Source: Candidatus Lokiarchaeum ossiferum
GTDB taxonomy: Archaea > Asgardarchaeota > Lokiarchaeia > Sigyniarchaeales > Promethearchaeaceae
Direction of reading: 5' to 3'
NCBI GenBank assembly: GCA_025839675.1
Contig: CP104013.1
Coordinates: 4,680,001-4,712,000, forward strand
Length of the DNA: 32,000 nt
Position numbers and translations under genes: made by a program. Under the pieces are notes generated by a model. The model was not told the origin of the DNA. It searched no databases and worked only from the letters and a program-made list of their open reading frames with translations. Shown one piece after another: positions 11,415 to 31,847 of this stretch. Numbering within the stretch: the first letter of the stretch is position 1; each line of letters begins with the position of its first letter.

Positions 11415-12560
11415 TTAATCATTCAACATTTTCTTAATATCTGCAACATTATCTTTTGATGTATTCGTTTCTATTTCAGGTTCATCTTCAATTGTTGGTT
11501 GTTTTTGGGGTTTTTGAACTTCCTTCTTCTTTCCTGGGAAGGGTGGAAGATCTAATTTAGTGGCACTCGGTTTTGCCGATTCTGGAGATTTATCTGATTT
11601 AAGTGTTTGAGCTGTGAATTGAAGTTGGTTCACTTTTTCCGTGAGTTTAATCAAAGATGGGACCAAGGTTGCTAAAGCATTATTCATACTTTCTAATCGA
11701 TGTTCAAATTTCCCAACCGTTTTATCAATATTCATCAAGCGAGTTCGGGATTCAATATTCAAGTTTTCAACTTTTTGCTCCATGCTATTGAGTCGCTCAA
11801 CGGTATTTTTTGCTAAATTCGTTATTTTCTCATCCGCATTAAACTTAGATAATCTATCTTCAATTTTACCTAATCGATTGTCCAGACGATTCATATCCAA
11901 CGTATCTAATTTTGATTTAATCCTGGAAACATCTTCCGTAGTGGCTAAATTAGAGATTTTCATGTCTATTTGGGATTGATAATGTTCCATCTTATCCGAT
12001 AACTTGTTTACTGCTTCATTTGGTGAATTTTCTTTTAATTCTTTGCTTAAATCTTTGATTTGATCTGTAAAATGAACTTCGCCGAATAAAGCATTCAACT
12101 TATATTCCACTTTTTCAAATCTTCCTTGGAGATCAAAACCGTCTAATTTTTGCTCTAGATTGTCTATTCGTTCTAAAACAGGTTTATTATCTAAAGATTG
12201 GGCTTCGATTTGGGGTGACTGATAACTACTTTGAGAATAGGTGGGTATTGGTGCTTGCGGCTGTGTATTTGGTTCCATGGCAGTTACCATTGGAGTTCGT
12301 TGCGGGTATTGGGCTGAACTGGTGCGTTGCGTGGTGCTTTGTATTGGATTTTGAGCGATAGTTGGTGTTTGAGGTGTTGCTCCATAGTTTTGAAAGGATG
12401 CCGTTCTTGGAACTGTGGTAGGAGAAACTCGTTTTTTAGGTGTCAATTCTTTCTTTTGACTCACGGGTTTTCCACATTTTGTACAAAATTTCTGGGAATC
12501 CTTCAATTCTGCACCGCAACCCCAGCAAAATTTTGGGGGACGTTTTTGGGCCATTTTCAT
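11415..12560 (-). CDS. Zinc-ribbon protein with Q/P/T-rich disordered linker and long coiled-coil region
   Basis: 381 aa. The N-terminus CWGCGAELKDSQKFCTKCGKP is a C-x2-C...C-x2-C ribbon. About 100 aa of low-complexity P/Q/T/S follow. Then about 200 aa carry recurring RL(D/N/E)x(L/M)ExK(L/V)-type heptad-like motifs. The tail is acidic/basic. No TM segment. Confidence 0.6.
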   Translation of the reverse strand: MKMAQKRPPKFCWGCGAELKDSQKFCTKCGKPVSQKKELTPKKRVSPTTVPRTASFQNYGATPQTPTIAQNPIQSTTQRTSSAQYPQRTPMVTAMEPNTQPQAPIPTYSQSSYQSPQIEAQSLDNKPVLERIDNLEQKLDGFDLQGRFEKVEYKLNALFGEVHFTDQIKDLSKELKENSPNEAVNKLSDKMEHYQSQIDMKISNLATTEDVSRIKSKLDTLDMNRLDNRLGKIEDRLSKFNADEKITNLAKNTVERLNSMEQKVENLNIESRTRLMNIDKTVGKFEHRLESMNNALATLVPSLIKLTEKVNQLQFTAQTLKSDKSPESAKPSATKLDLPPFPGKKKEVQKPQKQPTIEDEPEIETNTSKDNVADIKKMLND

Positions 12561-12959: not shown

Positions 12960-13508
12960 TTATTTAGAATAGGGCTTCTTCCAAATGTGGATGTCCATGA
13001 GCTGATTATTTAAATCGTCGAAACAAATGTCCACATTCTTCGCTTCTTTCGCCGAAGTTTCATAATAGGATGCGCGCAATTCTTGTGCCAATGCTTCCCC
13101 TTCCGTTTTCGACACCACCCGCTCTTCGATCAAATCAACCTTATTTCCCAGTAATATTCGAGGGACTCCAGGCGCATATTGTTCTGATTCTTCCACCCAG
13201 TTCTTCACGTGTTCGTATGACTCTCTGCGGGTTAAATCAAACACAAAAATACATGCGAACGCTCCTCGGTAAAAGGATGGTCTTACAAATTGAAAGTGTT
13301 TTTGACCCGCCAAATCCCAAATCTGGAGTCGAATTGCCAAATTTTCTTCAGGTTTATTGATCATCTTAATTGCAAAATTGGCCCCGATGCTCATAATGTA
13401 ATTTTCATTGAATTTTCTTTCCGTAAACTGGAGAACAAGAGATGTTTTACCAACCGCACCATCACCAAGTACAACTACTTTGAAGATATATTCTTTCGGG
13501 CCAGACAT
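12960..13508 (-). CDS. Rab/Ras-superfamily small GTPase (Rab-like)
   Basis: 182 aa. G1 is GDGAVGKT, switch I is SIGANF, G3 is RLQIWDLAGQ, G4 is GNKVD, G5 is ETSAK. Rab-like segments are FYRGA and FVFDLT. There is no C-terminal Cys prenylation motif (ends HIWKKPYSK). Confidence 0.9.
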   Translation of the reverse strand: MSGPKEYIFKVVVLGDGAVGKTSLVLQFTERKFNENYIMSIGANFAIKMINKPEENLAIRLQIWDLAGQKHFQFVRPSFYRGAFACIFVFDLTRRESYEHVKNWVEESEQYAPGVPRILLGNKVDLIEERVVSKTEGEALAQELRASYYETSAKEAKNVDICFDDLNNQLMDIHIWKKPYSK

Positions 13509-17475: not shown

Positions 17476-20400
17476 ATGAAGATTTCCAGACATGCGCGTG
17501 ATAAATATCAATTCCATGAGGAGTATTTTGCAGAAAATGGGGATGCACTATTTTCAGGGGATGTGCATAAAGTCAGAAAATTTGTTCAACAACTTAATCA
17601 AAAGCGGGATCTTATTTCATATCCCGAACTTGCTGCAAAAACAAGCGATGTTTATACATTAACTTTAATTTCAGAAATTAAAGGGTATGTGTACCAATTA
17701 TATTTGGATCAAATTCAAAATTCAAATTTGGCTCAAGAATTATATGAACATTTAGAAAAAGAATTTGATTCCAAAACCCTTCTTGAATGCACAAAATCCT
17801 TAATAGAAGAATTTCCTCCAGATCCCGTTTATAAAAATCAAATTGAAAGTGAAAAATTTCTGGAAATGGAAGAAAATGGAATTAAAAATAACATTAAATA
17901 TTTGCCTGGGTTTATCGAGCTCTGGCTTATAAATTCCAATCCTGCCTTTTCACAATATATGGAATTATATGATGATGAAAATTTAGAAAAACGGACACAA
18001 TATCTTGCCATTGTTGAAAATATCCGAACTTTTATGGAATCCAAACCCAAATTTACTTTTTCTGGTACCAATATTATTGATACTCTTCGAAATCCGGAAT
18101 TAAAGAGTCCACATTCAATTCGTGATCAATTGAAATATATTCAAGAAAATTGGTCCGAATTTATTGGTAAATGGGGATATTTAGTTCTAACCGGTATGGA
18201 TTTGATTCAAGAAGAAGAAAAAATGCGAGGATTTGGTCCAGGAAAAATCCAACCAATGGATTTTTACGGATTAGATATTGAAAACTATACTGCTGACAGT
18301 GCTTGGATGCCTAATGTCATCATGGTTGCTAAGAATGCATATGTTTGGCTAGGGCAGCTCTCTAAACAATATAATCGGGAGATTATTTATTTAAATCAAA
18401 TTCCAAATGAAGAGTTGGATCAATTGGTAAAATGGGGCTTTACATCCTTATGGTTAATTGGATTGTGGGAAAGAAGTCCTGCCTCAAAAACAATAAAAAA
18501 TTGGTGCGGTAATTCAGATGCGGAAGCTTCTGCATATTCCCTCTACGATTATGAAATTGCAGCGGATTTAGGTGGCTATCTTGCGTATCAAGATTTGAAA
18601 GATCGAGCGAGTCAGCGAGGGCTTCGCCTGGCGAGTGATATGGTCCCCAATCACACTGGCATCGATTCAAAATGGATGCGTGATCATCCAGATTGGTATG
18701 TTCAACTTCCTTATCCTCCATTTCCTTCTTATCAATATTCTGGGGCGGATCTATGTGGTGATTCGAATATTGGTGTTTATTTAGAAGATAAATATTTTTC
18801 CCGAACCGATGCGGCTGTGTCTTTTAAACGAGTGGATTTTCGTTCCGGTGATACGAGATATATTTACCATGGGAATGATGGCACGAGTATGCCATGGAAT
18901 GATACTGCTCAATTAAATTTTCTGAATCCTGAAGTACGTGAAGCTGTAATCCAAAAGATTTTGGATGTTGCTCGAATGTTTCCCATAATTCGATTTGATG
19001 CTGCCATGACCTTAACTCGAAAACATTTTCAACGATTATGGTTTCCAGAACCTGGAACTGGAGGGGATATTCCATCGCGTGCGGGAATGGGCATGACTAA
19101 AGAAGAATTTATGAAAAAAGTCCCAGAAGAATTTTGGCGGGAAGTGGTGGAACGTATTCGGACAGAAGTACCTGATACTTTACTTTTGGCTGAAGCTTTT
19201 TGGTTATTAGAAGGTTTTTTTGTTCGAACCTTAGGAATGCATAGAGTATATAACAGTATTTTTATGAACGCATTACGGGATGAGGAAAATTCGCTCTATC
19301 GAGGGTCCATCAAGAAAGCCCTTGAATTTGATAGGCGGATGTTGCAAAGGTTTGTAAATTTCATGAATAACCCTGATGAAGAAACCGCCTCAGTTCAATT
19401 TGGCACTGGGGAGAAGTATTTTGGAATTTGCTTATTATTAGTTACCATGCCTGGATTGCCAATGTTTGGTCATGGTCAAGTTCAAGGATATAAGGAAAAA
19501 TATGGGATGGAGTTTAGGCGAGCTTATTGGGACGAAACGGAAGATCGGGCTCTTCTTCATCACCATGAGCAAACCATCTTCCCAATTATGCAAAAGCGCT
19601 ATCTTTTTGCTCAAGCGGATAATTATTATTTATATGATTTCTGGGCTGGGAATGTTGTAAACGAAGATGTATATGCTTTTTCAAATATGGTTGGAAATGA
19701 ACGCGGTTTTGTTGTTTATAATAATCGATATAGTGAAACTAGCGGTTATGTGAAGAATTCGGTGGGTTATAATGAAAATGGGATCATTCTTCAAAAAGAA
19801 CTTGCTTCCGCTATGAATATTCCACGCGAAGGATATTCAATATTTAAAGATTATATGAGTAAGCTGGAATACATTCGTAAAAATCAAGAAATTCAAGATA
19901 AGGGGTTATATTTTGAGCTAAAACCATATCAAAGCATGTGTTTTTTGGAGTGGAAAAGTGTACAAGATAATGAATTTTCTCACTATTCTCAACTTTACAA
20001 TATGCTGGGTGGAAAAGGAGTACATTCCATTGATGATGCTTTAAAAGAGATGGTCTATAAACCAATTTTAACACCATTCCGTGAATTATTCAATGCTGGT
20101 CTGTTGAAACAAATACTGGTTGAAAAAACCAGTTTTATTGAAATTAAACCAAAAATAGAACATCAATTAAAGTTGTTAATTAATGAAACTCGAAGGTTTG
20201 TGGGGTTGGATTCCAATGGGGACGCTTTAGTTTTAGAAATCCTTAATAAATTGCACAATTTCATAGAATTTGCACAAAACCCTCCATCTCTCGATAATGT
20301 GGATGATCTCACACCTTCAACTCATGCTAAATGGGCAATGTTCTTTGGATGGGTTTTAACTCGTGAACTCGGAAAAGTTAAGAATCCAACTGATTTTTCC

Positions 20401-20847
20401 CTTTTGAGTCGAAGCTGGGTAGAAGAATGGCATCTTGGTAGTGTCATTCATTGGGTGTTAGGTGAAATTTGTCAGGAAAATGAAAAAATTGAAGAATATA
20501 TCTATTTATTGAAAATTTTAATTGGGTATCAAAATTGGGACACTGTTTTGGATTCACAAAAAGCAAACCTGTCATATTTCTCCTTGAAACCCTTGCTTTC
20601 AGACCCTGAAGTCCAAAACTTCCTTGGCTTTAATAGGTATCAAGAATCTTTGTGGTTTAATGAAGAGCGTATGCGGGAACTTTTAAAGGGGTTATTCATG
20701 GTATCCTATTTGAAAAATTATTCTGAAGATCATCTGCATCCCAATCCAGTTTTAGTAAAAATTTATCAAAAATGGAAGGAATCAGTCTTGAAATCCAAAT
20801 TTAAACTAGCTTCCTTCATAGATAACATAAAAAATGGCAACAATTAG
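17476..20847 (+). CDS. Large GH13-like (alpha-amylase superfamily) glycoside hydrolase/transglycosidase
   Basis: 1123 aa. GH13-type conserved regions occur in order: GLRLASDMVPNHTG (I), IRFDAAMTL (II, candidate nucleophile Asp), LLAEAFW (III, candidate acid/base Glu), FVNFMNNPDEE (IV, with NPD in place of the usual NHD). About 300 aa precede and about 450 aa follow the catalytic core. Confidence 0.7.
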   Translation: MKISRHARDKYQFHEEYFAENGDALFSGDVHKVRKFVQQLNQKRDLISYPELAAKTSDVYTLTLISEIKGYVYQLYLDQIQNSNLAQELYEHLEKEFDSKTLLECTKSLIEEFPPDPVYKNQIESEKFLEMEENGIKNNIKYLPGFIELWLINSNPAFSQYMELYDDENLEKRTQYLAIVENIRTFMESKPKFTFSGTNIIDTLRNPELKSPHSIRDQLKYIQENWSEFIGKWGYLVLTGMDLIQEEEKMRGFGPGKIQPMDFYGLDIENYTADSAWMPNVIMVAKNAYVWLGQLSKQYNREIIYLNQIPNEELDQLVKWGFTSLWLIGLWERSPASKTIKNWCGNSDAEASAYSLYDYEIAADLGGYLAYQDLKDRASQRGLRLASDMVPNHTGIDSKWMRDHPDWYVQLPYPPFPSYQYSGADLCGDSNIGVYLEDKYFSRTDAAVSFKRVDFRSGDTRYIYHGNDGTSMPWNDTAQLNFLNPEVREAVIQKILDVARMFPIIRFDAAMTLTRKHFQRLWFPEPGTGGDIPSRAGMGMTKEEFMKKVPEEFWREVVERIRTEVPDTLLLAEAFWLLEGFFVRTLGMHRVYNSIFMNALRDEENSLYRGSIKKALEFDRRMLQRFVNFMNNPDEETASVQFGTGEKYFGICLLLVTMPGLPMFGHGQVQGYKEKYGMEFRRAYWDETEDRALLHHHEQTIFPIMQKRYLFAQADNYYLYDFWAGNVVNEDVYAFSNMVGNERGFVVYNNRYSETSGYVKNSVGYNENGIILQKELASAMNIPREGYSIFKDYMSKLEYIRKNQEIQDKGLYFELKPYQSMCFLEWKSVQDNEFSHYSQLYNMLGGKGVHSIDDALKEMVYKPILTPFRELFNAGLLKQILVEKTSFIEIKPKIEHQLKLLINETRRFVGLDSNGDALVLEILNKLHNFIEFAQNPPSLDNVDDLTPSTHAKWAMFFGWVLTRELGKVKNPTDFSLLSRSWVEEWHLGSVIHWVLGEICQENEKIEEYIYLLKILIGYQNWDTVLDSQKANLSYFSLKPLLSDPEVQNFLGFNRYQESLWFNEERMRELLKGLFMVSYLKNYSEDHLHPNPVLVKIYQKWKESVLKSKFKLASFIDNIKNGNN

Positions 20848-21139: not shown

Positions 21140-24100
21140 TTAATCTGGATTTACAAATGTTAAAATATTCCATCCGTTCGATATGATATCCCCTGAATCC
21201 AAATCAATAAGATCAAACTTAATATAAATGGATAAAGATGGACCGTTTAAGGATTCTGATGGATTAAGTTTTAGAGTTATCATTCGTCCTTCTCCTGGGA
21301 ATATTGCGGTTGTGTCGTTCCAAACTCCTAATGTATGATTCCACGCGACAATATTCTCGGTAAAATTGTACTGATATCCTGGTTTTATACTGTTGAATAC
21401 TTTAACATCAATATCAACATCGGTTCGGACAGATAAATTGAGCATTAAATTTTTCTGTGGAAGGCTGTCATTTGTAGTGAAGTATTCGAAATAAGTTCGA
21501 ATTTCTGCCCAACTTGTCGGACTGTACTGAAATTCATCATATTCCTCTACTTCAAGCATCAAACCAGTTATATTTGTTTCAGTGGTTGTATCATTTAGTT
21601 GTAGATCAATTTTCAGTTCATTGTACGCTTCAGTTAAGGTAGGTCCATAATATGCGTCTTGTGTAAATGCATTTACTAAACCTGCCAAAGAAAGAGATTC
21701 CAAATTACCATCTTGAGAATATACTGGGATGTAGTAATATAATGATGATGCCAATGGATATAATAAGATATTTCCATATCGTTCATTCTGAATTGTGAAA
21801 ATTTCATTCGTTGCTTGATTTCCAAGCTCACCCATGGCTGTAGTTGGCCCAATTATATTATTTGAACTCTGGGTTTTATAAAATATTGTTTCTCCAAAGT
21901 GATTTCCCTGACGAATGATATACAGTCCCGCTAATTTAACTGAATCAACTTGATCATATTCCACAATATCAACTCCTACAAACTCTAATCCTTCTCCTAA
22001 GTCTGTTTCAATATAGAAGACATCTCCATTTTCAGGCCGTTTATAGAAATCAGACTTAAGCTTCCATGTTTCCTTATTTGTAACGTGATATTTATAATCT
22101 ATAACCAGTTGTTTTTCCCATAAAGACTCGGGATATCTTAATTGATCTAAAAGCCAATCTTCTGCGACCTCAAACTGGTAAATGCTCATATATACACCCC
22201 AAATACTGGAAAGTGGATCTTCTGAACCTGCGGGGAGTCCTGGGTTTCGATACCATGACAATTCGCCCGTTTGAACATCAATCAATACTGTACCTAAGAA
22301 ACGGTGTAAAAATGAATCAGTATACGCCCCCATAAATATTTCCGTATAGATTGAAACAGCATAAAACATTTTGCTATTATTTCTATCAAACACTAAATAT
22401 GGATCATCATCAATCTTTAGACCAGGCATCAAAATGGATTCAACTCGCGTTCGTATATTTCTGTTTATTAAAAAGGATTTATCTTCACCGTCAAAAGCAT
22501 TTTTTGTTAATCCCATATTTGCAGTAAACCATAAAGCTTCTAAACCAGTAATTGTCCCATCTGGGTCTCCTTCGTACTTATATTTCATTGATTCGTTACT
22601 TTCCCATCCGGTGTTTAATAAGATATCATTATCATATGCATCAATTGAAAGTGGGACTGAATAAAAGTCTGTGTTTGTTGTCCCTTCTAAATATGATGTA
22701 TCCTCCTCTTTCTCACCAAAGAAAATGGGGTGATCATTACCAACTCCAAAAATATCTTGGTAATCTTGACTATCTTGCAAAATTTTTCCTGTGGAAGTAT
22801 CTAAAGCTATAAATCCTTCTACATGATCATAGATTTCCGTATGTTGGTTAACATTTGATTCTAACAACTTTTTTGTTTGTAAAGTTTTTGGGGCTACCCA
22901 GAATTCACCCTTACCTTGTACAAAAACAATATCACTATCAGCCATCGTTTGGAAAGAATTGGTTATCAACGGCTTAATCTTTTTTGCCGAATTTATTTTA
23001 TCATGCTGCCGAATAACGTCAAGGATTGTATTATCTTCTTCAATTACATTTTGGGGATAGTTATCAATTGAATAAGTCATAAACAGATCATTGTCCCCAA
23101 TGGTAATACCTGCTGCTGCTCGTGTCCATTCTATCTGTTTTCCATCTTTAATATCCCAAACTTCTTCGGTCCACGTTTCGGGAGTTGACAATCCAATAGT
23201 TTTTGGGATACTGATAAATACTGGGATTAAGATGATAAAAATAGTTAAAACTGCTGCCATAATGGTCTTTTTTTGGATATTTCGACTGAATTGATGAATT
23301 TTGAGTTGATTTTGTTTCCTTCCATAAACTAAAAAGGCTATTCCAAGACCAAGAAAGCTAAATATTCCCAAATAAATACTCCAAACTTGAGTTAAATCAA
23401 TACCATTTTGTGCTTGTAATGGTCTGTCGATTAAACTCAGTATGAAAAATATTGCAATGATAAAACTCGCATTTGCTGCTATTTGAAACTCATCTTTTAC
23501 TAAATAAGCATAATATACAATGGTTGAAATAAGTCGGAAAATTATTACCCCAAGAACAAATCTTAATATTGGTAAGGTTACCGCTGCATATAAAAAGATA
23601 TCCAATTGTGATACGGATGCAGGATTTGAGATCGCATTTAATGCAGTCAAGAATGAACCCAAATTACCCTCAATTGTTCCTTCATCTATCATTTTCATGA
23701 CTAAATCAAAATAACCACTTCCCATGGCTTGACCAATAATGAAGAAAAATACAAACCCTATCGTCCACCATATGATTAAAGTCTTCACTTTGGAAGGTTT
23801 TCCCCATCCGAATTTTTGACCGACAATTGTGATTAACGAATCGTCTGGTGGAATACTCATAATTAGTGATCCCAATATCGCTCCGATTAATCCTATTTTA
23901 TTGAAGAAAAAGTTGGTGCTCCACCCATTTAATGTAAAAATTTCCCAATAATTAAGTCCGCTTTTAGTGTCATAGAGTTGGTTTTGGAGATTAATTTTAG
24001 CATGCCACACGGGGTATATATAGAAAATACTTATCAAAATAATAACTACTGCAATAATCCCTACGATGTAGAGTTTTTTTTTGAAATTAGGCGAATTTGA

Positions 24101-24370
24101 TCGAGTATAGGTAAACCGATTTGGTCGTGATGGTGCATCATGGTAGGATGGACCATTTTCAATATTTGGAATTTCCGGTCGACGTGGTGGGGTATCATTT
24201 TTTGAATTTGAGAAATCTTCGTAATTAAAATCTTCTATGTTTACATCATCATACAAGCGTTTTCTATCTGAATCATCTTCGGTTTCAGCATTTAAAGCTT
24301 GACATTCAGAGCAATTTGCCACAAACCGATAATGTTTATCGCAATGTTTTTTTTTTACCATTTCATTCAC
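21140..24370 (-). CDS. UPF0182-family membrane protein (7 TM plus large extracytoplasmic domain) with an N-terminal Cys-rich extension
   Basis: 1076 aa with 7 hydrophobic helices in the first about 390 aa. Several blocks match UPF0182 (e.g. M. tuberculosis Rv3193c) as I recall it: IEWTRAAAGI, HTEIYDHVEGFIA, HPIFFG, FLINRNIRTRVESILMPGL..DPYLV, LRYPESLWEKQLVIDYKYHV...SDFYKRP, ERYGNILLYPLASSLYYYIPVY. The track start is GTG at 24370; an ATG lies at 24361. Confidence 0.8.
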   Translation of the reverse strand: MNEMVKKKHCDKHYRFVANCSECQALNAETEDDSDRKRLYDDVNIEDFNYEDFSNSKNDTPPRRPEIPNIENGPSYHDAPSRPNRFTYTRSNSPNFKKKLYIVGIIAVVIILISIFYIYPVWHAKINLQNQLYDTKSGLNYWEIFTLNGWSTNFFFNKIGLIGAILGSLIMSIPPDDSLITIVGQKFGWGKPSKVKTLIIWWTIGFVFFFIIGQAMGSGYFDLVMKMIDEGTIEGNLGSFLTALNAISNPASVSQLDIFLYAAVTLPILRFVLGVIIFRLISTIVYYAYLVKDEFQIAANASFIIAIFFILSLIDRPLQAQNGIDLTQVWSIYLGIFSFLGLGIAFLVYGRKQNQLKIHQFSRNIQKKTIMAAVLTIFIILIPVFISIPKTIGLSTPETWTEEVWDIKDGKQIEWTRAAAGITIGDNDLFMTYSIDNYPQNVIEEDNTILDVIRQHDKINSAKKIKPLITNSFQTMADSDIVFVQGKGEFWVAPKTLQTKKLLESNVNQHTEIYDHVEGFIALDTSTGKILQDSQDYQDIFGVGNDHPIFFGEKEEDTSYLEGTTNTDFYSVPLSIDAYDNDILLNTGWESNESMKYKYEGDPDGTITGLEALWFTANMGLTKNAFDGEDKSFLINRNIRTRVESILMPGLKIDDDPYLVFDRNNSKMFYAVSIYTEIFMGAYTDSFLHRFLGTVLIDVQTGELSWYRNPGLPAGSEDPLSSIWGVYMSIYQFEVAEDWLLDQLRYPESLWEKQLVIDYKYHVTNKETWKLKSDFYKRPENGDVFYIETDLGEGLEFVGVDIVEYDQVDSVKLAGLYIIRQGNHFGETIFYKTQSSNNIIGPTTAMGELGNQATNEIFTIQNERYGNILLYPLASSLYYYIPVYSQDGNLESLSLAGLVNAFTQDAYYGPTLTEAYNELKIDLQLNDTTTETNITGLMLEVEEYDEFQYSPTSWAEIRTYFEYFTTNDSLPQKNLMLNLSVRTDVDIDVKVFNSIKPGYQYNFTENIVAWNHTLGVWNDTTAIFPGEGRMITLKLNPSESLNGPSLSIYIKFDLIDLDSGDIISNGWNILTFVNPD

Positions 24371-24372
24371 TT

Positions 24373-24440
24373 ATCTAAGATATGTATATATTAATAGGGT
24401 ACACAAGATATCTAAAGATATATATATTAATGGGTATACA
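24373..24440. promoter_or_regulatory. Imperfect direct duplication (about 31 bp x2) of a TATA-rich element in a divergent promoter region
   Basis: ATCTAAGATATGTATATATTAATAGGGTACACA (24373-24404) and ATCTAAAGATATATATATTAATGGGTATACA (24410-24440) lie between the UPF0182 gene (minus) and the small ORF (plus). Confidence 0.4.
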
Positions 24441-24447
24441 ATAAAAA

Positions 24448-24744
24448 GTGAGTAATATGTTTAAGAAACGAGGCCAGAAGAAAGGAACGAAGGAAAATGA
24501 TTTATACAGTGTTCTTGCTGCTCTAGGTGTTATGGAGGACGAATTTTGCGGAGCTGCTCCAATGGATGAAATTCATTTCTGTCTTCGAGTTGATTTCAAA
24601 CGCAAAATGAAAGATACTCAAATGATTACTTTTCTCGAAAAAGGAATCGAACTTGGCTATTCTCTTCGAGCTGATAAGGGATGGAAACTAACTCCTCAAG
24701 GCGCTCAAATTGTAGATGAATATTTATCATCTTTAGCAAATTAA
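24448..24744 (+). CDS. Small hypothetical protein, possible winged-helix DNA-binding fold
   Basis: 98-aa ORF from GTG 24448; ATG at 24457 is more likely. The pattern is helix-helix-helix then GYSLRADKGWKLTPQGAQIV, resembling a wHTH wing. Fold is guessed from the pattern only. Confidence 0.4.
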   Translation: MSNMFKKRGQKKGTKENDLYSVLAALGVMEDEFCGAAPMDEIHFCLRVDFKRKMKDTQMITFLEKGIELGYSLRADKGWKLTPQGAQIVDEYLSSLAN

Positions 24745-24809: not shown

Positions 24810-24815
24810 GGGTGA
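24810..24815 (+). promoter_or_regulatory. Shine-Dalgarno-like GGGTGA upstream of the 2274-aa gene
   Basis: GGTGA lies 7 nt before the ATG at 24823. It matches the core of the canonical archaeal SD (GGAGGTGA). Confidence 0.35.
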
Positions 24816-24822
24816 CTAATCG

Positions 24823-27800
24823 ATGCTGAAAACACGGGAAGAAGTAAATCAACTAATTATTGATGCTGACAAATTGATTCAACAAGAAAAAATTTCAGAA
24901 GGACTTGCATTATTCGATAAAGCAAAAAAGCTTGCGATTGCATTAGATTGGGCTGAAAGAGAATCGCAAATATCTCAAATGATTTCTGATGTGCATTTTA
25001 ATGTAAAAAAAAGACGATTTCTTGAAGAAAAACAAAAAAAAATCGAAGAAAATCTCAAGAAACAGCAAGATGATGAAAATAAATTAGTCGCTGCTCAAAA
25101 AAGGGTATTTGATAAACAACAACAAAATAAACAATTGAAATTAGATCAGTTAAAACAGAAGAAGGAATTTGAATCCCAACAATCCGAAAAAGCTTATAAT
25201 CAATTAGAAATTGGCTCTAAATTTGTTTCTCAAAACCAGTTTGGGGAAGGATTGAATGCTTTTCAAGAAGCGCTAAGAATATTTACTGAAATACATTGGT
25301 CCGCAGAAATTATGCGTACTAAAGAATTAATTTCAGACACGAAAAATAGAAAAAATGAATATGATGTGAAACTTCTCAAGGAAAAACGAAATGTTGAGAC
25401 TCTCCAAAAATCTATTCAACAGGAAAATAAAATTATTGATTCAGAACGAGAAAAAAAAATTTTGGAAGATCAAAAGAAGAACTCAATAAATGAAGAAAAA
25501 ACAAAGAAACAATCTTTTGAAAATCAACTTTCAGATGAAATGTATGATGAAATTTCAAAATGGGAAAAAATTGGTGATGAATACCTTAAGCAAGTTAAAT
25601 CTGGAAATATACTTTCTACTGAGTGCCCATATCCACAAATTATTGAAATTTACTCCCAAAATTACAAAAAAGCAAAGAATCTTGGCTGGACAAATCAAGC
25701 AAATCGATTTTTTGAGGGTATCTCTTTATATAAGGAAAAAATGGTAAGAGATCAAAAACTCAGAGTTATTGAAGAAAGAAAAATATCTAAATCCAAAGCA
25801 GATCAAGATTATATCAATAAAAAAATTAAAACTTCTAAGTTATTGCAACAGGAAAGACAACAAAAAATAGCTTCTAAACGTCAAGAAGAAGAATTGAAAG
25901 CTCAACAAGAGCAAGCTATCGCGGATGAAGTATTGAAATCCATTGATACGATTGAGTCTACAATTAAGCTATATGAAAATCGTGCTGATCGCATTCCCTA
26001 TGAGTGTCCATATGCCCAAGCCATTGAAATTTATAAGGCGGGTGCGAACCGTTTAAAGGAACTCGGTTGGACGGAGCAATCTCAACGTCTTTATGATGGA
26101 ATGAATACATATCGCGAAAAATTAACCAAAGATCAACAATATAGAGAATCCGAAGCCAATCGTATTGCAAAAACCAAAGAAGAAGCGGAAATGTTAGAAA
26201 AACGGGCGACTCTTTCCAAACAATTACAGGAAGAAAAACAACAAAAACTCTTGTCCCAACGTCAAAAAGAAGAATTGAAAGCCCAACAAGAACAAGCAAT
26301 CGCGGATGAAGTGTTTAAATCCATTGATGCGATTGAGTCTACAATTAAGCTATATGAAAATCGTGCTGATCGCATTCCCTATGAGTGTCCATATGCCCAA
26401 GCCGTTGAAATTTATAAGGCGGGTGCGAACCGTTTGAAGGAACTCGGTTGGACGGAGCAATCTCAGCGTCTTTATGATGGAATGAATACTTACCGGGAAA
26501 AATTGACCAAGGATCAACAATATAGAGAGTCCGAAGCCAATCGTATTGCAAAAACCAAAGAAGAAGCAGAAATGTTAGAAAAACGAGCGGCTCTTTCCAA
26601 AAAATTACAAGAAGAAAAACAACAAAAACTCCTGTCCCAACGTCAAGAAGAAGAATTGAAAGCTCAACAAGAGCAAGCTATCGCGGATGAAGTGTTTAAA
26701 TCCATTGATGCGATTGAGTCTACAATTAAGCTATATGAAAATCGTGCTGATCGCATTCCCTATGAGTGTCCATATGCCCAAGCCATTGAAATATATAAGG
26801 CGGGTGCGAACCGTTTAAAGGAACTCGGTTGGACGGAGCAATCTCAACGTCTTTATGATGGAATGAATACATATCGCGAAAAATTAACCAAAGATCAACA
26901 ATATAGAGAATCCGAAGCCAATCGTATTGCAAAAACCAAAGAAGAAGCGGAAATGTTAGAAAAACGGGCGGCTCTTTCCAAACAATTACAGGAAGAAAAA
27001 CAACAAAAACTCTTGTCCCAACGTCAAGAAGAGGAATTGAAAGCTCAACAAGAGCAAGCTATCGCGGATGAAGTGTTTAAATCCATTGATACGATTGAGT
27101 CTACAATTAAGCTATATGAAAATCGTGCTGATCGCATTCCCTATGAGTGTCCATATGCCCAAGCCATTGAAATTTATAAGGCGGGTGCGAACCGTTTGAA
27201 GGAACTCGGTTGGAAGGAGCAATCTCAGCGTCTTTATGATGGAATGAATACTTACCGGGAAAAATTGACCAAGGATCAACAATATAGAGAGTCCGAAGCC
27301 AATCGTATTGCAAAAACCAAAGAAGAAGCGGAAATGTTAGAAAAACGGGCGGCTCTTTCCAAACAATTACAGGAAGAAAAACAACAAAAACTCCTGTCCC
27401 AACGTCAAAAAGAAGAATTGAAAGCCCAACAAGAACAAGCTATTGCGGATGAAGTGTTTAAATCCATTGATGCGATTGAGTCTACAATTAAGCTATATGA
27501 AAATCGTGCTGATCGCATTCCCTATGAGTGTCCATATGCCCAAGCCATTGAAATTTATAAGGCGGGTGCGAACCGTTTAAAGGAACTCGGTTGGACGGAG
27601 CAATCTCAGCGTCTTTATGATGGAATGAATACATATCGCGAAAAATTAACCAAAGATCAACAATATAGAGAATCCGAGGCCAATCGTATTGCAAAAACCA
27701 AAGAAGAAGCGGAAATGTTAGAAAAACGGGCGGCTCTTTCCAAACAATTGCAGGAAGAAAAACAACAAAAACTCCTGTCCCAACGTCAAGAAGAGGAATT

Positions 27801-30800
27801 GAAAGCTCAACAAGAGCAAGCTATCGCGGATGAAGTGTTTAAATTCATTGATACGATTGAGTCTACAATTAAGCTATATGAAAATCATGCTGATCGCATT
27901 CCCTATGAGTGTCCATATGCTCAAGCCATTGAAATTTATAAGGCGGGTGCGAACCGCTTGAAGGAAATCGGTTGGACGGAGCAATCTCTGCGTCTTTATG
28001 ATGGAATGAATACATATCGCGAAAAATTAACCAAAGATCAACAATATAGAGAATCCGAAGCCAATCGTATTGCAAAAACCAAAGAAGAAGCGGAAATGTT
28101 AGAAAAACGGGCGGCTCTTTCCAAACAATTACAGGAAGAAAAACAACAAAAACTCCTGTCCCAACGTCAAAAAGAAGAATTGAAAGCCCAACAAGAACAA
28201 GCTATTGCGGATGAAGTGTTTAATTCCATTGATACGATTGAGTCTACAATTAAACTATATGAAAATCATGCTGATCGCATTTCCTATGAATGCCCATATA
28301 CGCAAGCCATTGAAATTTATAAGGTGGGTGCGAACCGCTTGAAGGAACTCGGTTGGACGGAGCAATCTCAACGTCTTTATGATGGAATGAATACTTACCG
28401 CGAAAAGTTAACCAAAGATCAACAATATAGAGAGTCTGAAGCAATGAAAGTGCTAAAGACCCAAAAAGATACCGAATTGCTGGAAAAACGCTCCCTTTTA
28501 TCCCATCAACTAGAATTAGAAAAAAAGCAGCAAAAATTGCGTCATGAACAAGAATTAAGAGAAAAAGCCAGAAGAGAGAAATTACTAGGTGAAAGTGTTT
28601 TTAATGAAATCGATAAAATTGAAGCTGTTATAAAAAAATATGAATCCTTAGAGGATATTATCCCATATGAATGTCCATACTCTGAAGCCATAAATGTTTA
28701 TAAAAAGAGCGCAAATCGGTTGAAAGATTTGGGTTGGCTTGAACAATCTTTACGATTGTATGATGGAATGAATACTTATCGAGAGAAACTTGCAAAAGAT
28801 AAGCAATTTCGTTTAAATGATGCAAAAAGAATCGTAAAGACGAAGAAAGATGCCGAGATGTTAGAAAAAAGAGCAGCTATCTCCAAAAAATTACAACAGG
28901 AAAAAGAACAACGTATAATTAAGGAAAGAGAAGCAGAAAAGGCAAAACTTGATAATCAAACTACTATTGCAAATGAAATTTTTAGACAAATTGATGAAAT
29001 TGAAGAAATTGTCAAGAATTATGAAAACAATGTTGATATCTTTTCGATTGAATGTCCCTACTCTATTGCAATAGAAAAGTATCAATATGGTTCAAGGAAA
29101 TTGCAAGAGATTGGGTGGATTGAAGAATCAACTAGGTTGTTAGATGGGGTTGAGCTATATCGTGAAAAATTGATTAAAGACAATACTTTTCGCCAACTCG
29201 AGAAAAAACGAATTGAGAAAATTCAAGAAGATGCTGCTTTAATTGAACAACGTGTAAATTTATCTAAAAAATTGAAAGAAGAACGAGAAAAGATAGAAGA
29301 AGAGCAAAGATTCCGAGAATTGGAGAGTAAAAAACAAAAAGAGTCTTTAGCTCAAAAAGTTTTTTTGGAAATTGATGAAATCGAAAATCAAGTAAAACAA
29401 TATGAAAATCAACCGGATAGAATCCCATATGATTGTCCTTATCAAAAAGCTATAAATATATATCAAGAAAATGCGTCAAAATTGCGTGATATTGGTTGGG
29501 GCGAGGAAGCTGCTCGATTATTTGATGGTGTGAATACTTATCAACAAAAATTAGCTGCAGATAAAAGTTATAGAAAGTTGGAAATGCTGAGAGTTGCAAA
29601 GACCAAAGAAGAATCTGAAATGCTCGAACGAAGAGCTAAGCTGGCCAAAGAAATTGCTGAAGCAACTAAAGCTAAACAAAAAGCTGCAGAACTTCAAATA
29701 GAAAAGGAAAACCAATATAAAAAAGAACAAAGTGATATTGCTTTTGAATTAATGGATAGGGGAAATTTGCTTGCTAATGAACATAATCTTTTTGATCAAG
29801 CAATAGAAAAATTCAAGGAAGCTCAAGAAATTTTTCGTAATATTCATTGGTTTGCAGAAGAAGAGAAAGTTTTGATGCAAATATCTCATTTTCGGGAACG
29901 AAAGCTTCAAAAACAATTAGAAGAGCAGAAAAATAAAGAAGCTTACTTTAAACAACAAAAAGAAATCGAAGAAATAGAGCAACTTGCGAAATTGAGCCAA
30001 GAAATCCAAAATAAAAAATTAAAAGAAGAAGAAACTAGAAAGAGAATTGATGCTGAAGATAAACGAAAACAAGCTGAAATTGAATTTCAAAAACGAATCG
30101 AATTATCCCAAAAGCTAGAAGCAAAAAAATTACAAGAGCGACAGAAAGCTTTACAAGAAGAAATTAATAAAGAAATGCATAATAAGCAAATTCATGACGA
30201 ATGCCTGGAACTTCTAGAAAAAGCACGCGTTTTCGTGACTGATCAGAAAATTGAAGCAGCATTAAAAATTTATAATACAGTGATTGAAAAATATGCTTCA
30301 ATTGACTATTTTGACGGGATTAGACTAACAAAAGATACTATTCTTAAGGTAGAACAAGATTTTGAAGAATTTAAGAAGCAAGAAATGTTAAAACTCAAGT
30401 CTATTCAGGAAAGAAAGGAAGAAGAAGCGAGATTGGAAAAATTGATTTTAGCTGCTAAAGAAGAGTCGGAACGACAAAAGCTTGAAGAACAAAAAAGATT
30501 TTTGCAAGAAGAAGTAGAAAGGGAGGAAAGAGAGCAAATTCAAGATGAAATTATTACTTTAATTGCAGATGCTGGAAATCTTGCACAAAGTAATAATTTT
30601 GAAAAATCACTTGAAATCTATCAAAAAGCTTTAAAATTATTTGATAAAATTTCTTGGCCGTTAAAACATCAACAAGTAAAAAGCATCATTAATGAAGTTA
30701 AATCAAAGAAAAAAACTTATGAAGAAAATCTTCGCCTTAAAAAAATCCAGAATGAAAAGTTGGAGGCTGAAAGGAAAGAATTTGAAGAGATGATGGCTCA

Positions 30801-31647
30801 ACAAGAAAGAAAAAGAAAATCACAAGAAGAACTCGCTGAGCAGCAATCTATGGAAAGACAGATTGAGATCGCTCGTCAAAAAGAAATGGGTGATAATGCA
30901 TATCGCATGTTAGAATTAGCTGAGAATTCAAGCGAGTCTCGTAAAAAATATCTTGGTTTACATTATTTTCACTATGCTCTATTTAATTTCAAGACTATTG
31001 GATGGGATCGTGAAGCAAAAACTACCAAAAAAAGGTTTATTGGTATATATAATTCTATTCAATCTCCATTAATTGATGTTAATGAACTTTTGATGAACGA
31101 AAAACTTGAAAAGGAGTTTCACATAATGAATTCTTTAACGCAAGTTATTAAATGGAAGAATAGAAACGATTTTTCCGCTGCCCAAACCGAAATTAAGACG
31201 ATCATTCATCTGGTTCAAGAATTTGGGTGGGTTAAATCCTTAAAGTTACTCCAATCATTTCAAGACCAATTGAAAATTGAAGAAAAATTGTATCTGAAAG
31301 AATTGGAATCTGAACAATCTAAACCAAGTGAAGAAAAAGCAAATAAATTAATAAAACAAGCTACATATCAAATAAAACAATTATCCTATGATAAAGGAAT
31401 TAATTTGGCTGAAGAAGCTCACGAAATGCTTGTCCAGATTGGAAGGGCGAGAGAAGCGAGAACTGTGGAGCAAGAATTGTTGAGGTGGAAATTGAAAGCG
31501 GAAAAAGCGTTACAAAAGAAAAATTCATCCGATAGATCGGAATCTCCAAAAATATCTCAATATTTAACTGATGAAGAACGAAGAAGAGCAATTATTGATG
31601 AAAGAAAGCGTAGGAGAAGAGAAGCTCGCAAAAAATTTCAGAAATAA
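24823..31647 (+). CDS. 2274-aa soluble repeat protein: helical-hairpin mini-domains separated by long E/K/Q/R-rich helices; family unknown
   Basis: One uninterrupted 6.8-kb ORF with no hydrophobic TM segment or signal peptide. It has 11 modules with an (E/D)CPY...GW signature plus about 8 related hairpins with a conserved aromatic (e.g. EALRIFTEIHW, EAQEIFRNIHW, ALKLFDKISW, ALFNFKTIGW). The C-terminal tail is basic (RKRRRREARKKFQK). Confidence 0.85.
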   Translation: MLKTREEVNQLIIDADKLIQQEKISEGLALFDKAKKLAIALDWAERESQISQMISDVHFNVKKRRFLEEKQKKIEENLKKQQDDENKLVAAQKRVFDKQQQNKQLKLDQLKQKKEFESQQSEKAYNQLEIGSKFVSQNQFGEGLNAFQEALRIFTEIHWSAEIMRTKELISDTKNRKNEYDVKLLKEKRNVETLQKSIQQENKIIDSEREKKILEDQKKNSINEEKTKKQSFENQLSDEMYDEISKWEKIGDEYLKQVKSGNILSTECPYPQIIEIYSQNYKKAKNLGWTNQANRFFEGISLYKEKMVRDQKLRVIEERKISKSKADQDYINKKIKTSKLLQQERQQKIASKRQEEELKAQQEQAIADEVLKSIDTIESTIKLYENRADRIPYECPYAQAIEIYKAGANRLKELGWTEQSQRLYDGMNTYREKLTKDQQYRESEANRIAKTKEEAEMLEKRATLSKQLQEEKQQKLLSQRQKEELKAQQEQAIADEVFKSIDAIESTIKLYENRADRIPYECPYAQAVEIYKAGANRLKELGWTEQSQRLYDGMNTYREKLTKDQQYRESEANRIAKTKEEAEMLEKRAALSKKLQEEKQQKLLSQRQEEELKAQQEQAIADEVFKSIDAIESTIKLYENRADRIPYECPYAQAIEIYKAGANRLKELGWTEQSQRLYDGMNTYREKLTKDQQYRESEANRIAKTKEEAEMLEKRAALSKQLQEEKQQKLLSQRQEEELKAQQEQAIADEVFKSIDTIESTIKLYENRADRIPYECPYAQAIEIYKAGANRLKELGWKEQSQRLYDGMNTYREKLTKDQQYRESEANRIAKTKEEAEMLEKRAALSKQLQEEKQQKLLSQRQKEELKAQQEQAIADEVFKSIDAIESTIKLYENRADRIPYECPYAQAIEIYKAGANRLKELGWTEQSQRLYDGMNTYREKLTKDQQYRESEANRIAKTKEEAEMLEKRAALSKQLQEEKQQKLLSQRQEEELKAQQEQAIADEVFKFIDTIESTIKLYENHADRIPYECPYAQAIEIYKAGANRLKEIGWTEQSLRLYDGMNTYREKLTKDQQYRESEANRIAKTKEEAEMLEKRAALSKQLQEEKQQKLLSQRQKEELKAQQEQAIADEVFNSIDTIESTIKLYENHADRISYECPYTQAIEIYKVGANRLKELGWTEQSQRLYDGMNTYREKLTKDQQYRESEAMKVLKTQKDTELLEKRSLLSHQLELEKKQQKLRHEQELREKARREKLLGESVFNEIDKIEAVIKKYESLEDIIPYECPYSEAINVYKKSANRLKDLGWLEQSLRLYDGMNTYREKLAKDKQFRLNDAKRIVKTKKDAEMLEKRAAISKKLQQEKEQRIIKEREAEKAKLDNQTTIANEIFRQIDEIEEIVKNYENNVDIFSIECPYSIAIEKYQYGSRKLQEIGWIEESTRLLDGVELYREKLIKDNTFRQLEKKRIEKIQEDAALIEQRVNLSKKLKEEREKIEEEQRFRELESKKQKESLAQKVFLEIDEIENQVKQYENQPDRIPYDCPYQKAINIYQENASKLRDIGWGEEAARLFDGVNTYQQKLAADKSYRKLEMLRVAKTKEESEMLERRAKLAKEIAEATKAKQKAAELQIEKENQYKKEQSDIAFELMDRGNLLANEHNLFDQAIEKFKEAQEIFRNIHWFAEEEKVLMQISHFRERKLQKQLEEQKNKEAYFKQQKEIEEIEQLAKLSQEIQNKKLKEEETRKRIDAEDKRKQAEIEFQKRIELSQKLEAKKLQERQKALQEEINKEMHNKQIHDECLELLEKARVFVTDQKIEAALKIYNTVIEKYASIDYFDGIRLTKDTILKVEQDFEEFKKQEMLKLKSIQERKEEEARLEKLILAAKEESERQKLEEQKRFLQEEVEREEREQIQDEIITLIADAGNLAQSNNFEKSLEIYQKALKLFDKISWPLKHQQVKSIINEVKSKKKTYEENLRLKKIQNEKLEAERKEFEEMMAQQERKRKSQEELAEQQSMERQIEIARQKEMGDNAYRMLELAENSSESRKKYLGLHYFHYALFNFKTIGWDREAKTTKKRFIGIYNSIQSPLIDVNELLMNEKLEKEFHIMNSLTQVIKWKNRNDFSAAQTEIKTIIHLVQEFGWVKSLKLLQSFQDQLKIEEKLYLKELESEQSKPSEEKANKLIKQATYQIKQLSYDKGINLAEEAHEMLVQIGRAREARTVEQELLRWKLKAEKALQKKNSSDRSESPKISQYLTDEERRRAIIDERKRRRREARKKFQK
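25498..29688 (+). repeat. Array of 11 tandem 127-codon coding modules (1 diverged, 7 near-identical, 3 diverged)
   Basis: Module starts in register are about 25498, 25879, 26260, 26641, 27022, 27403, 27784, 28165, 28540 (6-nt deletion), 28927 (6-nt insertion) and 29308. Each carries ...Y(E/D)CPY..AI..Y......L...GW.E...R...G...Y..KL. Confidence 0.85.
25879..28443 (+). repeat. Near-identical 381-bp tandem repeat core (about 6.7 copies), in frame
   Basis: The string cgtcaaRaagaRgaattgaaagc recurs at exactly 381-nt spacing (25879 to 28165). Copies 1 and 3 differ at about five positions that I could find by eye. Identity is lost after about 28443. Confidence 0.95.
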
Positions 31648-31667: not shown

Positions 31668-31847
31668 TTAGTTTTCCCCTTTATTTTTCCTATTTTCAAT
31701 CAATTTTTTGAGTTGAATTTCATTACGTATTAAATCTCTAACTGCAGTACGAATAGCTTCGCTTCTGTTGGGGAACAATTTTTCATTTACTAATAAATCA
31801 AGCGTTTCAATATAAGCTTCAGGTATGTAAACAGTTAACATTTTCAT
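31668..31847 (-). CDS. Ribbon-helix-helix (CopG/Arc/MetJ-type) protein
   Basis: Not in the ORF track (59 aa). My translation is MKMLTVYIPEAYIETLDLLVNEKLFPNRSEAIRTAVRDLIRNEIQLKKLIENRKNKGEN. This is a classic RHH pattern: beta strand, then LD.LV, then (P/N)RSEAIR.A(V/I)RDL. It is convergent with the 2274-aa gene, with stops 20 nt apart. Confidence 0.8.
   Translation of the reverse strand: MKMLTVYIPEAYIETLDLLVNEKLFPNRSEAIRTAVRDLIRNEIQLKKLIENRKNKGEN

Follow-up and report, generated by a model that had tools for sequence, protein, structure and literature searches.

A giant Asgard archaeal protein composed of MIT/TPR-like three-helix modules that are predicted to be joined by long helices at fixed spacing

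Several described protein architectures bear on NEF87_004034, a 2274-residue protein of Candidatus Lokiarchaeum ossiferum encoded in the 32,000-nucleotide stretch analyzed here (the window; assembly GCA_025839675.1, contig CP104013.1, positions 4,680,001 to 4,712,000). The MIT domain (PF04212; Vps4, spastin, katanin, calpain-7, Vta1/LIP5) is a stand-alone three-helix bundle of ~70–80 aa resembling 1.5 TPR repeats, and known MIT proteins have one or two such domains attached to an enzymatic or adaptor domain. TPR proteins (PF00515, PF07719) work with at least three contiguous 34-aa repeats arranged in a superhelix. The spectrin-repeat rods (spectrin, alpha-actinin, dystrophin, plakins) consist of three-helix bundles in series, the final helix of each bundle running on to become the opening helix of the one that follows; in spectrin the repeat length is 106 aa, the three helices are each about 30 residues, and there is no free linker. 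Single-alpha-helix (SAH) domains, such as those of myosin X and myosin VI, are long solvent-exposed helices. The Staphylococcus aureus Ebh/FIVAR-GA rod is a giant bacterial adhesin, extracellular and associated with the cell wall, whose ~126-aa repeats are three-helix bundles connected through long helices.

NEF87_004034 shares features with these systems and differs from each of them. Its modules are predicted to be stand-alone three-helix bundles like MIT domains, but the protein consists wholly of 18–19 of them, apparently linked at a constant period through unbroken helices of 96 residues, and one subtype (here CPY/GW) has an extra 11-residue loop. The helix A/B consensus of TPR proteins is present in modules of the family, but the hairpins are isolated and each is capped by a third helix. 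The handing-on of the last helix of a bundle as the first of the next is predicted here by AlphaFold2 (AF2), and the likeness to spectrin is an analogy only; there is no Pfam spectrin (PF00435) match, Foldseek matches have E about 0.3 and TM scores of at most 0.2, the repeats of the family are 116 or 127 aa, and the bundles are short (helices of 22, 17, and 25 residues) with 47 helix residues lying outside any bundle. Ebh is unrelated in sequence, with no match in any search made, and its similar repeat length is probably coincidence.

The gene is an intact open reading frame (ORF) at 24823..31647 on the forward strand, and its product is 100% identical to the L. ossiferum hypothetical protein NEF87_004034; its composition is dominated by E (15%), K (13%), Q (9%), and L (9%). 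The CPY tripeptide occurs 11 times (aa 268, 395, and onward to 1538) with an exact 127-aa period, each followed 20 residues later by GW, and Tandem Repeats Finder (TRF) reports a 381-nt period over 25877–28778 with 95% matches. The eleven CPY/GW modules (cores aa 233–1585; 25519..29577, forward strand) are each organized as helix 1, an 11-residue loop (DKIPYxCPY), helix 2, an IGW turn, and helix 3. A profile hidden Markov model (HMM) that was started from a single simple module in a distant relative and refined iteratively against 49 homologues recovers 18 modules: two N-terminal, the eleven CPY/GW modules at about 1e-16 each, and five C-terminal. The two N-terminal simple modules (aa 3–74 and 118–190; 24829..25392, forward strand; domain E 8.5e-7 and 2.1e-14) have anchors 116 aa apart, a spacing also seen in the orthologue P0003. 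The C-terminal simple modules number six (29722..31530, forward strand; aa 1634–1707, 1788–1861, 1904–1975, 2020–2080, 2093–2166, and 2169–2236) if the weak module at aa 2093–2166 is included, which is significant at the equivalent site in two orthologues. The simple modules, with the pattern F/Y-x2-A-x3-F-x2-I-x-W, and the CPY/GW modules constitute one homologous family, as their profiles align with hhalign at a probability of 96.4% (E 1.2e-9). The original prediction, made from the DNA letters alone, had these elements largely in place: it recognized an Asgard-like genome, counted 11 CPY/GW modules and about eight simpler units (two N-terminal and about six past 29.7 kb, where all of the C-terminal ones lie), and the charged linker string that it quoted, together with the motifs LAIALDW and IFTEIHW, can all be located in NEF87_004034.

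The array is of mixed age. Units 2–7 (25870..28155, forward strand) are 93–98% identical in DNA sequence and, by the DNA identity matrix and TRF, represent a recent amplification; unit 8 is ~84% identical to them, and units 1, 9, 10, and 11 are just 46–64% identical to other units, yet stand in perfect register. This contrast indicates an old array to which a recent amplification has been added. A short-read assembly (Logan SRR22273277 contig 912, locus L006) breaks within the amplified region, with the giant gene stopping at residue ~361 at the onset of the near-identical units. The complete genome of a close strain (CP163304.1; 99.05% nucleotide identity over the shared 17.5 kb) has a counterpart ORF of identical length that differs at 70 nt and 24 aa and contains zero indels, which rules out assembly error as the source of the module count. 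Another contig of the same sequencing run (contig 105, locus L001) encodes the orthologue P0002, which is 38% identical and has 17 CPY/GW modules, and a second, related Lokiarchaeon is thus present in that sample.

The repeated units had been described as short hairpin-like elements, but they are instead predicted to be three-helix modules of ~70–80 aa. The AF2 model of one CPY/GW module, built from an alignment (A1) of 41 non-redundant modules from NEF87_004034 and its three closest orthologues, has a predicted local distance difference test score (pLDDT) of 96.2 and a predicted template modeling score (pTM) of 0.84, with helices at positions 2–23, 35–51, and 55–79; the 11-residue loop between the first two holds the (D)KIPYxCPY motif. 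Near-invariant positions are I12, E16, Y22, E23, P34, Y35, Y42, W54, Y68, K71, D75, and R79. The Cys of the CPY tripeptide is variable in orthologues, where the motif is CPY, SPY, PPY, or APY, and a metal or redox role for it was rejected on these grounds. Foldseek returned no significant match for the single module.

The connections between modules were modeled with AF2 using alignment A3, which covers three modules and their linkers (aa 1205–1632). The model has a mean pLDDT of 85.8, with linker values of 79–91, and the modules stand alone and unstacked. Two helices run without a break from one module to the next: a 97-residue helix (aa 1306–1402; 28738..29028, forward strand; AF2 residues 102–198) that starts as helix 3 of unit 9, passes through the 47-aa linker, and finishes as helix 1 of unit 10, and a 96-residue helix (aa 1433–1528; 29119..29406, forward strand; AF2 residues 229–324) leading from unit 10 into unit 11. 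Only 47 aa of each 127-aa period lie outside the HMM core, and the linkers are accordingly much shorter than the 85 aa first proposed. Foldseek gave no significant match for the three-module model, the nearest structures including beta-spectrin repeats (E about 0.3, TM score 0.12–0.20); it could be aligned to compact structures only at a root-mean-square deviation (rmsd) of 50–80 Å, and the model is therefore very elongated.

The linkers have a distinct character. In 39 non-redundant units the content of Pro plus Gly is about zero, which argues for helix and against disorder. The first ~25 residues are as conserved as the core, with the consensus R-(I/V)-A-K-T-K-E-E-x-E-(M/L)-L-E-x-R-A-x-L-A-x-x-L, and the last ~22 columns are variable; the linkers are thus not the plain spacer segments that had been envisaged. 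They resemble SAH domains in their predicted form, long helices exposed to solvent, with abundant E, K, R, and Q and practically no Pro or Gly, but differ in being 43–57% charged with 16–23% strong hydrophobics, and in having low i/i+3/i+4 salt-bridge scores. These scores (a simple measure of our own rather than Waggawagga) are 0.14–0.28, compared with about 1.0–1.2 for ideal E4K4 and 0.41–0.66 for approximate myosin SAH sequences. Each half of the linker has low Fourier power at a 3.5-residue period, showing no sustained heptad periodicity, and there is only a short stripe of hydrophobic or Ala positions (columns 86/87, 95/96, 100, 102/103, and 106) that could be a packing face for a partner or a second chain. 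The description of these segments as coiled-coil or SAH-like therefore holds in part: a continuous helix of 96–97 residues is predicted, but it is neither a canonical SAH nor a heptad coiled coil. The expectation that the array would extend well over 100 nm remains a reasonable one, given the very elongated model.

The spacing of the modules is strikingly constant among orthologues. The three closest, P0002 (2910 aa), P0003 (2394 aa), and P0004 (1876 aa), share 34–39% identity with NEF87_004034 and have 17, 12, and 8 high-scoring CPY/GW modules, respectively, all at a 127-aa period; copy number varies but spacing does not. The 39 non-redundant 127-aa units from the four proteins align with zero indels, a result easier to reconcile with rigid connectors than with disorder. 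The flanking simple modules are similarly constrained, with spacings of 116 and 127–131 in the N-terminal part and 116, 153/154, 116, 116, 75, and 68–72 in the C-terminal part; the C-terminal anchor spacings of NEF87_004034 (154, 116, 116, and 147, the last being 75+72) equal those of P0002–P0004 within about one residue. The two periods are simply related: the CPY/GW subtype has an additional 11-residue loop, which brings 116 to 127. Among a distant paralogue group (P0024–P0049; about 23% identity) 87% of 439 spacings are 112–120 aa, with a mode of 116, and by this comparison the 116-aa period is ancient. The more distant group P0005–P0023 has Gly in its linkers and a period that varies from about 121 to 134 aa. 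If the connecting helix is continuous, an indel alters how far apart the modules lie and also their relative rotational phase, and such strict length conservation is what would be expected if this geometry is under selection, to which it points.

Assignment of the modules to a described family relies on relatives and on profile comparisons. MIT (PF04212) is the top Pfam family in relatives, above the gathering score of 30 bits in P0024 (E 1.3e-36, 124.9 bits) and P0029 (2.9e-18, 66.1 bits), and P0014 has a full-length match (31.8 bits, profile positions 2–66 of 66). When 56 simple modules were scanned singly, 28 matched MIT (E ≤ 0.01; best 6.4e-7), whereas TPR_2, TPR_1, and SNAP were matched by 12, 11, and 4. 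Against PDB sequences the simple-module profile matches the VPS4A MIT domain at E 2e-4 over ~50 positions and the archaeal Vps4 and calpain-7 MIT domains at 2–3e-3; its matches to consensus TPR proteins cover just 23 positions (14–36), corresponding to one helix-turn-helix, and the TPR helix A/B consensus G-x-Y-x(2)-A-I-x(2)-Y-x(2)-A is recognizable in the modules. The top PDB match of the CPY/GW profile is 2w2u_A (E 0.058), an archaeal Vps4 MIT domain. NEF87_004034 itself is linked to MIT transitively, through the family HMM and hhalign. It has no contiguous stacked TPRs; the hairpins are isolated in modules 116–127 residues apart with a 47-residue helix between them. Our reading is that the modules are TPR-related three-helix units for which MIT is probably the nearest described family, and the giant proteins would then represent a familiar module type assembled into a new architecture. 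Binding of the C-terminal tail or a linker motif by the protein's own modules was considered and rejected, as a relaxed pattern for MIM1 (a MIT-interacting motif) has no match in nine family members.

We propose that NEF87_004034 is a cytoplasmic, all-alpha, semi-rigid rod acting as a multivalent scaffold or spacer, and give this a probability of roughly 50%. Of the roles that the original prediction raised as speculation (cytoskeletal, tethering, or molecular ruler), that of a ruler is plausible, as is a scaffold. The 18–19 homologous modules, TPR-related and with MIT as their best family-level Pfam match, would form a chain in which helix 3 runs unbroken through the 47-residue charged linker into the next helix 1, so that each period would consist of a ~96-residue helix, a 17-residue helix, and a loop. 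The bundle is predicted to be up-down-up, with the incoming and outgoing long helices in the same direction, and the chain could fold back only with difficulty. As an alpha helix rises ~0.15 nm per residue, each period would carry the staggered rod forward by about 11 nm (96 x 0.15 nm, less an overlap of ~22 residues); the 127-aa array would then measure about 110 nm and the complete protein on the order of 200 nm. Numerous equivalent grooves able to bind peptides or helices may thereby be displayed at a fixed distance and fixed rotational phase, where they might engage a repeating or polymeric partner, and one end of the rod may be held in place by the conserved basic helix at the C-terminus. 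A cytoplasmic location is suggested by the absence of any transmembrane-like segment, as the original prediction had noted (the highest 19-aa Kyte-Doolittle window is 0.74), and the N-terminus is hydrophilic, although no dedicated signal-peptide predictor was applied. The C-terminal tail (aa 2245–2274, ending DEERRRAIIDERKRRRREARKKFQK; 31555..31644, forward strand) has a net charge of +7 over its last 30 residues, bearing out the basic extreme C-terminus noted earlier, and a related tail, L[RK]xRIAARRxERRKKVLxLLKK, is kept across P0005–P0023.

Several observations weigh against this proposal. The pTM of the three-module model is only 0.35 and the relative orientation of the modules is thus unpredicted; AF2 is also prone to drawing charged sequences as long helices. 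Scanned as a whole against Pfam, NEF87_004034 has a single match, to TPR_2 (E 0.022, aa 1920–1940), and none to MIT, and just 3 of the 41 CPY/GW modules match MIT, all at E ≥ 0.005. Genomic context, both in the window and at related loci, points to no binding partner.

Two alternatives would retain the elongated form but change what it does. Long helices of different chains could associate, in either parallel or antiparallel orientation, like those of alpha-actinin and spectrin dimers or of intermediate-filament-like proteins, generating dimers, bundles, or a lattice rather than a monomeric ruler. The conserved short amphipathic stripe in the first half of the linker, the richness in E, K, Q, and L, and the presence of spectrin-repeat rods among the nearest (non-significant, E about 0.3) Foldseek matches are consistent with such a self-assembling cytoskeletal element, but the linker lacks a sustained 3.5-residue hydrophobic periodicity, its variable half has no hydrophobic seam, and the three-helix knots would break any long coiled coil every 116–127 residues; we consider it unlikely, although the most probable of the alternatives. 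Somewhat less probable is that the modules are true MIT domains specific for ESCRT-III, binding the C-terminal MIM helices of its Asgard subunits; a single rod would then contact numerous subunits of an ESCRT-III polymer, or else recruit Vps4 or compete with it. Asgard Vps4 MIT is known to bind both MIM1 and MIM2 of Asgard ESCRT-III (PMC7240154), providing a precedent for this recognition. MIT is the best Pfam family for modules of the superfamily, the PDB profile matches include VPS4A, archaeal Vps4, and calpain-7, and the modules stand alone as MIT domains do; set against this, the NEF87_004034 modules themselves fall under the Pfam MIT threshold, MIT and TPR are hard to separate at such divergence, and there is no ESCRT gene in the window or at four related loci.

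Other explanations dispense with a defined rod or with its proposed role. Were the linkers disordered or marginally helical, the protein would be a flexible polyampholyte tether, an entropic string of beads with no defined spacing, as the low SAH-type salt-bridge scores, the low three-module pTM, and the Gly-containing linkers and variable period (about 121–134 aa) of P0005–P0023 might suggest. The residue-exact linker length in close orthologues, the lack of Pro and Gly, the conserved motif that makes up half of the linker, and the linker pLDDT of 79–91 all speak against it, and we regard it as quite improbable. A shade more doubtful again is a scaffold associated with the nucleoid or with nucleic acids, in which the Arg/Lys-rich tail binds DNA or RNA and the neighboring winged-helix and ribbon-helix-helix (RHH) genes are functional partners. 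The conserved basic tail and the retention of these upstream and downstream genes at four loci fit this idea, but the small flanking genes may merely be transcriptional regulators, no nucleic-acid-binding domain was detected in the giant protein with Pfam, and the charge of the protein body is near-balanced. Least probable by our estimate is an ordinary TPR-repeat protein folded as a compact superhelix and serving as a generic protein-protein interaction platform. The UniRef name of the entry ('Tetratricopeptide ...'), the weak TPR_2 match, and the matches of the module profile to consensus TPR proteins would be explained, but those matches span a single helix-turn-helix of 23 positions, the modules never abut and have 47-residue helices between them, and the model is elongated with no superhelix.

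Both selection and distribution indicate that the gene is maintained. Pooled pN/pS (the ratio of nonsynonymous to synonymous differences) among the recently duplicated units 2–8 is 0.22, and by this measure the gene is under purifying selection. Intact orthologues of 1876–2910 aa include DSAG12_01611 (2547 aa) of Promethearchaeum syntrophicum MK-D1. Together with the equal-length ORF in the second strain, these observations led us to reject an interpretation as a pseudogene or junk repeat. The family is rare: among 1.84 billion cluster representatives, an exhaustive HMMER search with the module profile matched only 162. Of these, 107 reach E ≤ 1e-10, and almost all of the matches have multiple modules. 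Twenty matches were sampled across the ranking, and all 13 of the clusters with an organism name are from Asgard archaea, including P. syntrophicum MK-D1, Ca. Harpocratesius, and a paralogue in L. ossiferum. The smaller L. ossiferum paralogue NEF87_004398 (P0198, 1077 aa; 'tetratricopeptide repeat protein' in UniRef) has five weakly matching modules, with E 6.6e-5 to the CPY/GW profile. The searchable literature contains no mention of NEF87_004034, NEF87_004033, DSAG12_01611, or DSAG12_01610, nor any description of such a family, and the NEF87_004034 locus tag is absent from the supplements of a 2026 chromatin preprint. The family thus appears to be undescribed and, among the named matches sampled, has been found so far in Asgard archaea only.

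The giant gene is flanked by two small genes that are retained at related loci. A Shine-Dalgarno-like GGTGA (as GGGTGA; 24810..24815, forward strand), read directly from the sequence, lies 7 nt before the ATG and presumably acts in translation initiation. Directly upstream is NEF87_004033 (95 aa; 24457..24744, forward strand), probably a winged-helix protein, a label taken from its UniRef name alone ('ArnR1-like winged ...'), as it has no Pfam match and no match to PDB sequences. The ORF listing starts this gene at a GTG at 24448, and the ATG at 24457 matches the 95-aa NCBI product. A gene of this type is directly upstream and on the same strand at all four loci examined; the small proteins are 34–48% identical between loci, with identities to NEF87_004033 of 47% (L001), 44% (L002), and 34% (L004). 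At the distant locus L002 the small upstream protein (44%) is better conserved than the giant protein (~27%). Between NEF87_004033 and the UPF0182 gene is a TATA-rich tandem duplication of 36 bp (TATATATTAAT; 24372–24441, 1.9 copies, 85% match), placed at a distance that would suit the promoter of a transcript with a short leader, or none, beginning close to the ATG at 24457.

Downstream and convergent is a 59-aa RHH gene of the CopG type (31668..31847, reverse strand; Pfam RHH_1 E 9e-7), which is 67–71% identical to the same-position genes in L004 (P. syntrophicum) and L001 (the P0002 contig), and 51% in L002. Beyond the end of the window is a forward-strand gene cluster (L005:17550-20026 in the same genome, L004:16083-18553, and L001:17109-19613). 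Its first gene, coding for 107 aa, has no Pfam match and is 52–74% identical between L001, L002, and L004; it is followed by genes of ~180 aa, ~280–306 aa, and ~204 aa, the last of which codes for a GTPase-like product (GTP_EFTU at 24–25 bits, just under the cut-off). The distant locus L002 keeps only the 107-aa gene of this cluster.

No ESCRT or cytoskeletal gene is near the giant gene in the window, the rest of which is occupied by housekeeping functions. The divergent neighbor in L. ossiferum, P. syntrophicum, and the P0002 contig, though not in L002, is a UPF0182-family membrane protein gene (1076 aa; 21140–24370, reverse strand), whose product has an N-terminal Cys-rich stretch (HCDKHYRFVANCSEC) resembling a small zinc-binding motif. 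An unusually large alpha-amylase-family protein (1123 aa; 17476–20847, forward strand) is syntenic with it in the P0002 contig too. Further to the left are a Ras-family small GTPase gene (12960–13508, reverse strand; Pfam Ras E 4e-51), 11 kb from the giant gene, and a gene coding for a 381-aa protein (11415–12560, reverse strand) with an N-terminal zinc ribbon (E 5.6e-8) followed by weak matches to helical families. Small Arf/Ras-like GTPase genes are also found two genes from the giant-gene relatives in L002 and L003, but because such genes are very common in Asgard genomes this proximity is uninformative and may be chance.

The residue-exact spacing at ~35% identity suggests selection on geometry, a hallmark of a structural ruler or scaffold. 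The family is among the large Asgard proteins and is present in both of the well-studied cultured species, L. ossiferum and P. syntrophicum MK-D1, for which cultures, antibodies, cryo-electron tomography pipelines, and proteomes exist, so that these ideas are directly testable. Even with a mundane function, the family would still offer protein designers a clean case, taken from nature, of a helical repeat rod with locked length. The most specific form of our proposal is an Asgard invention, a rod of MIT domains that would work in the manner of eukaryotic spectrin or plakins, forming a ~100–200 nm ruler whose phase-locked grooves bind the C-terminal helices of a polymer (ESCRT-III foremost, with Lokiactin- or tubulin-associated factors as alternatives) and template or cross-link it every ~11 nm under the membrane of cell bodies and protrusions; this is a long shot, slightly less probable than the ESCRT-III-specific scaffold weighed above and better placed than the tether. 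The question bears on how Asgard archaea build their constricted, branched protrusions and organize their cytoskeleton and ESCRT machinery. If the modules do bind ESCRT-III or another polymer, the family would be a new organizing component of the Asgard cell, and MIT-type recognition would have been used multivalently before eukaryotes arose.

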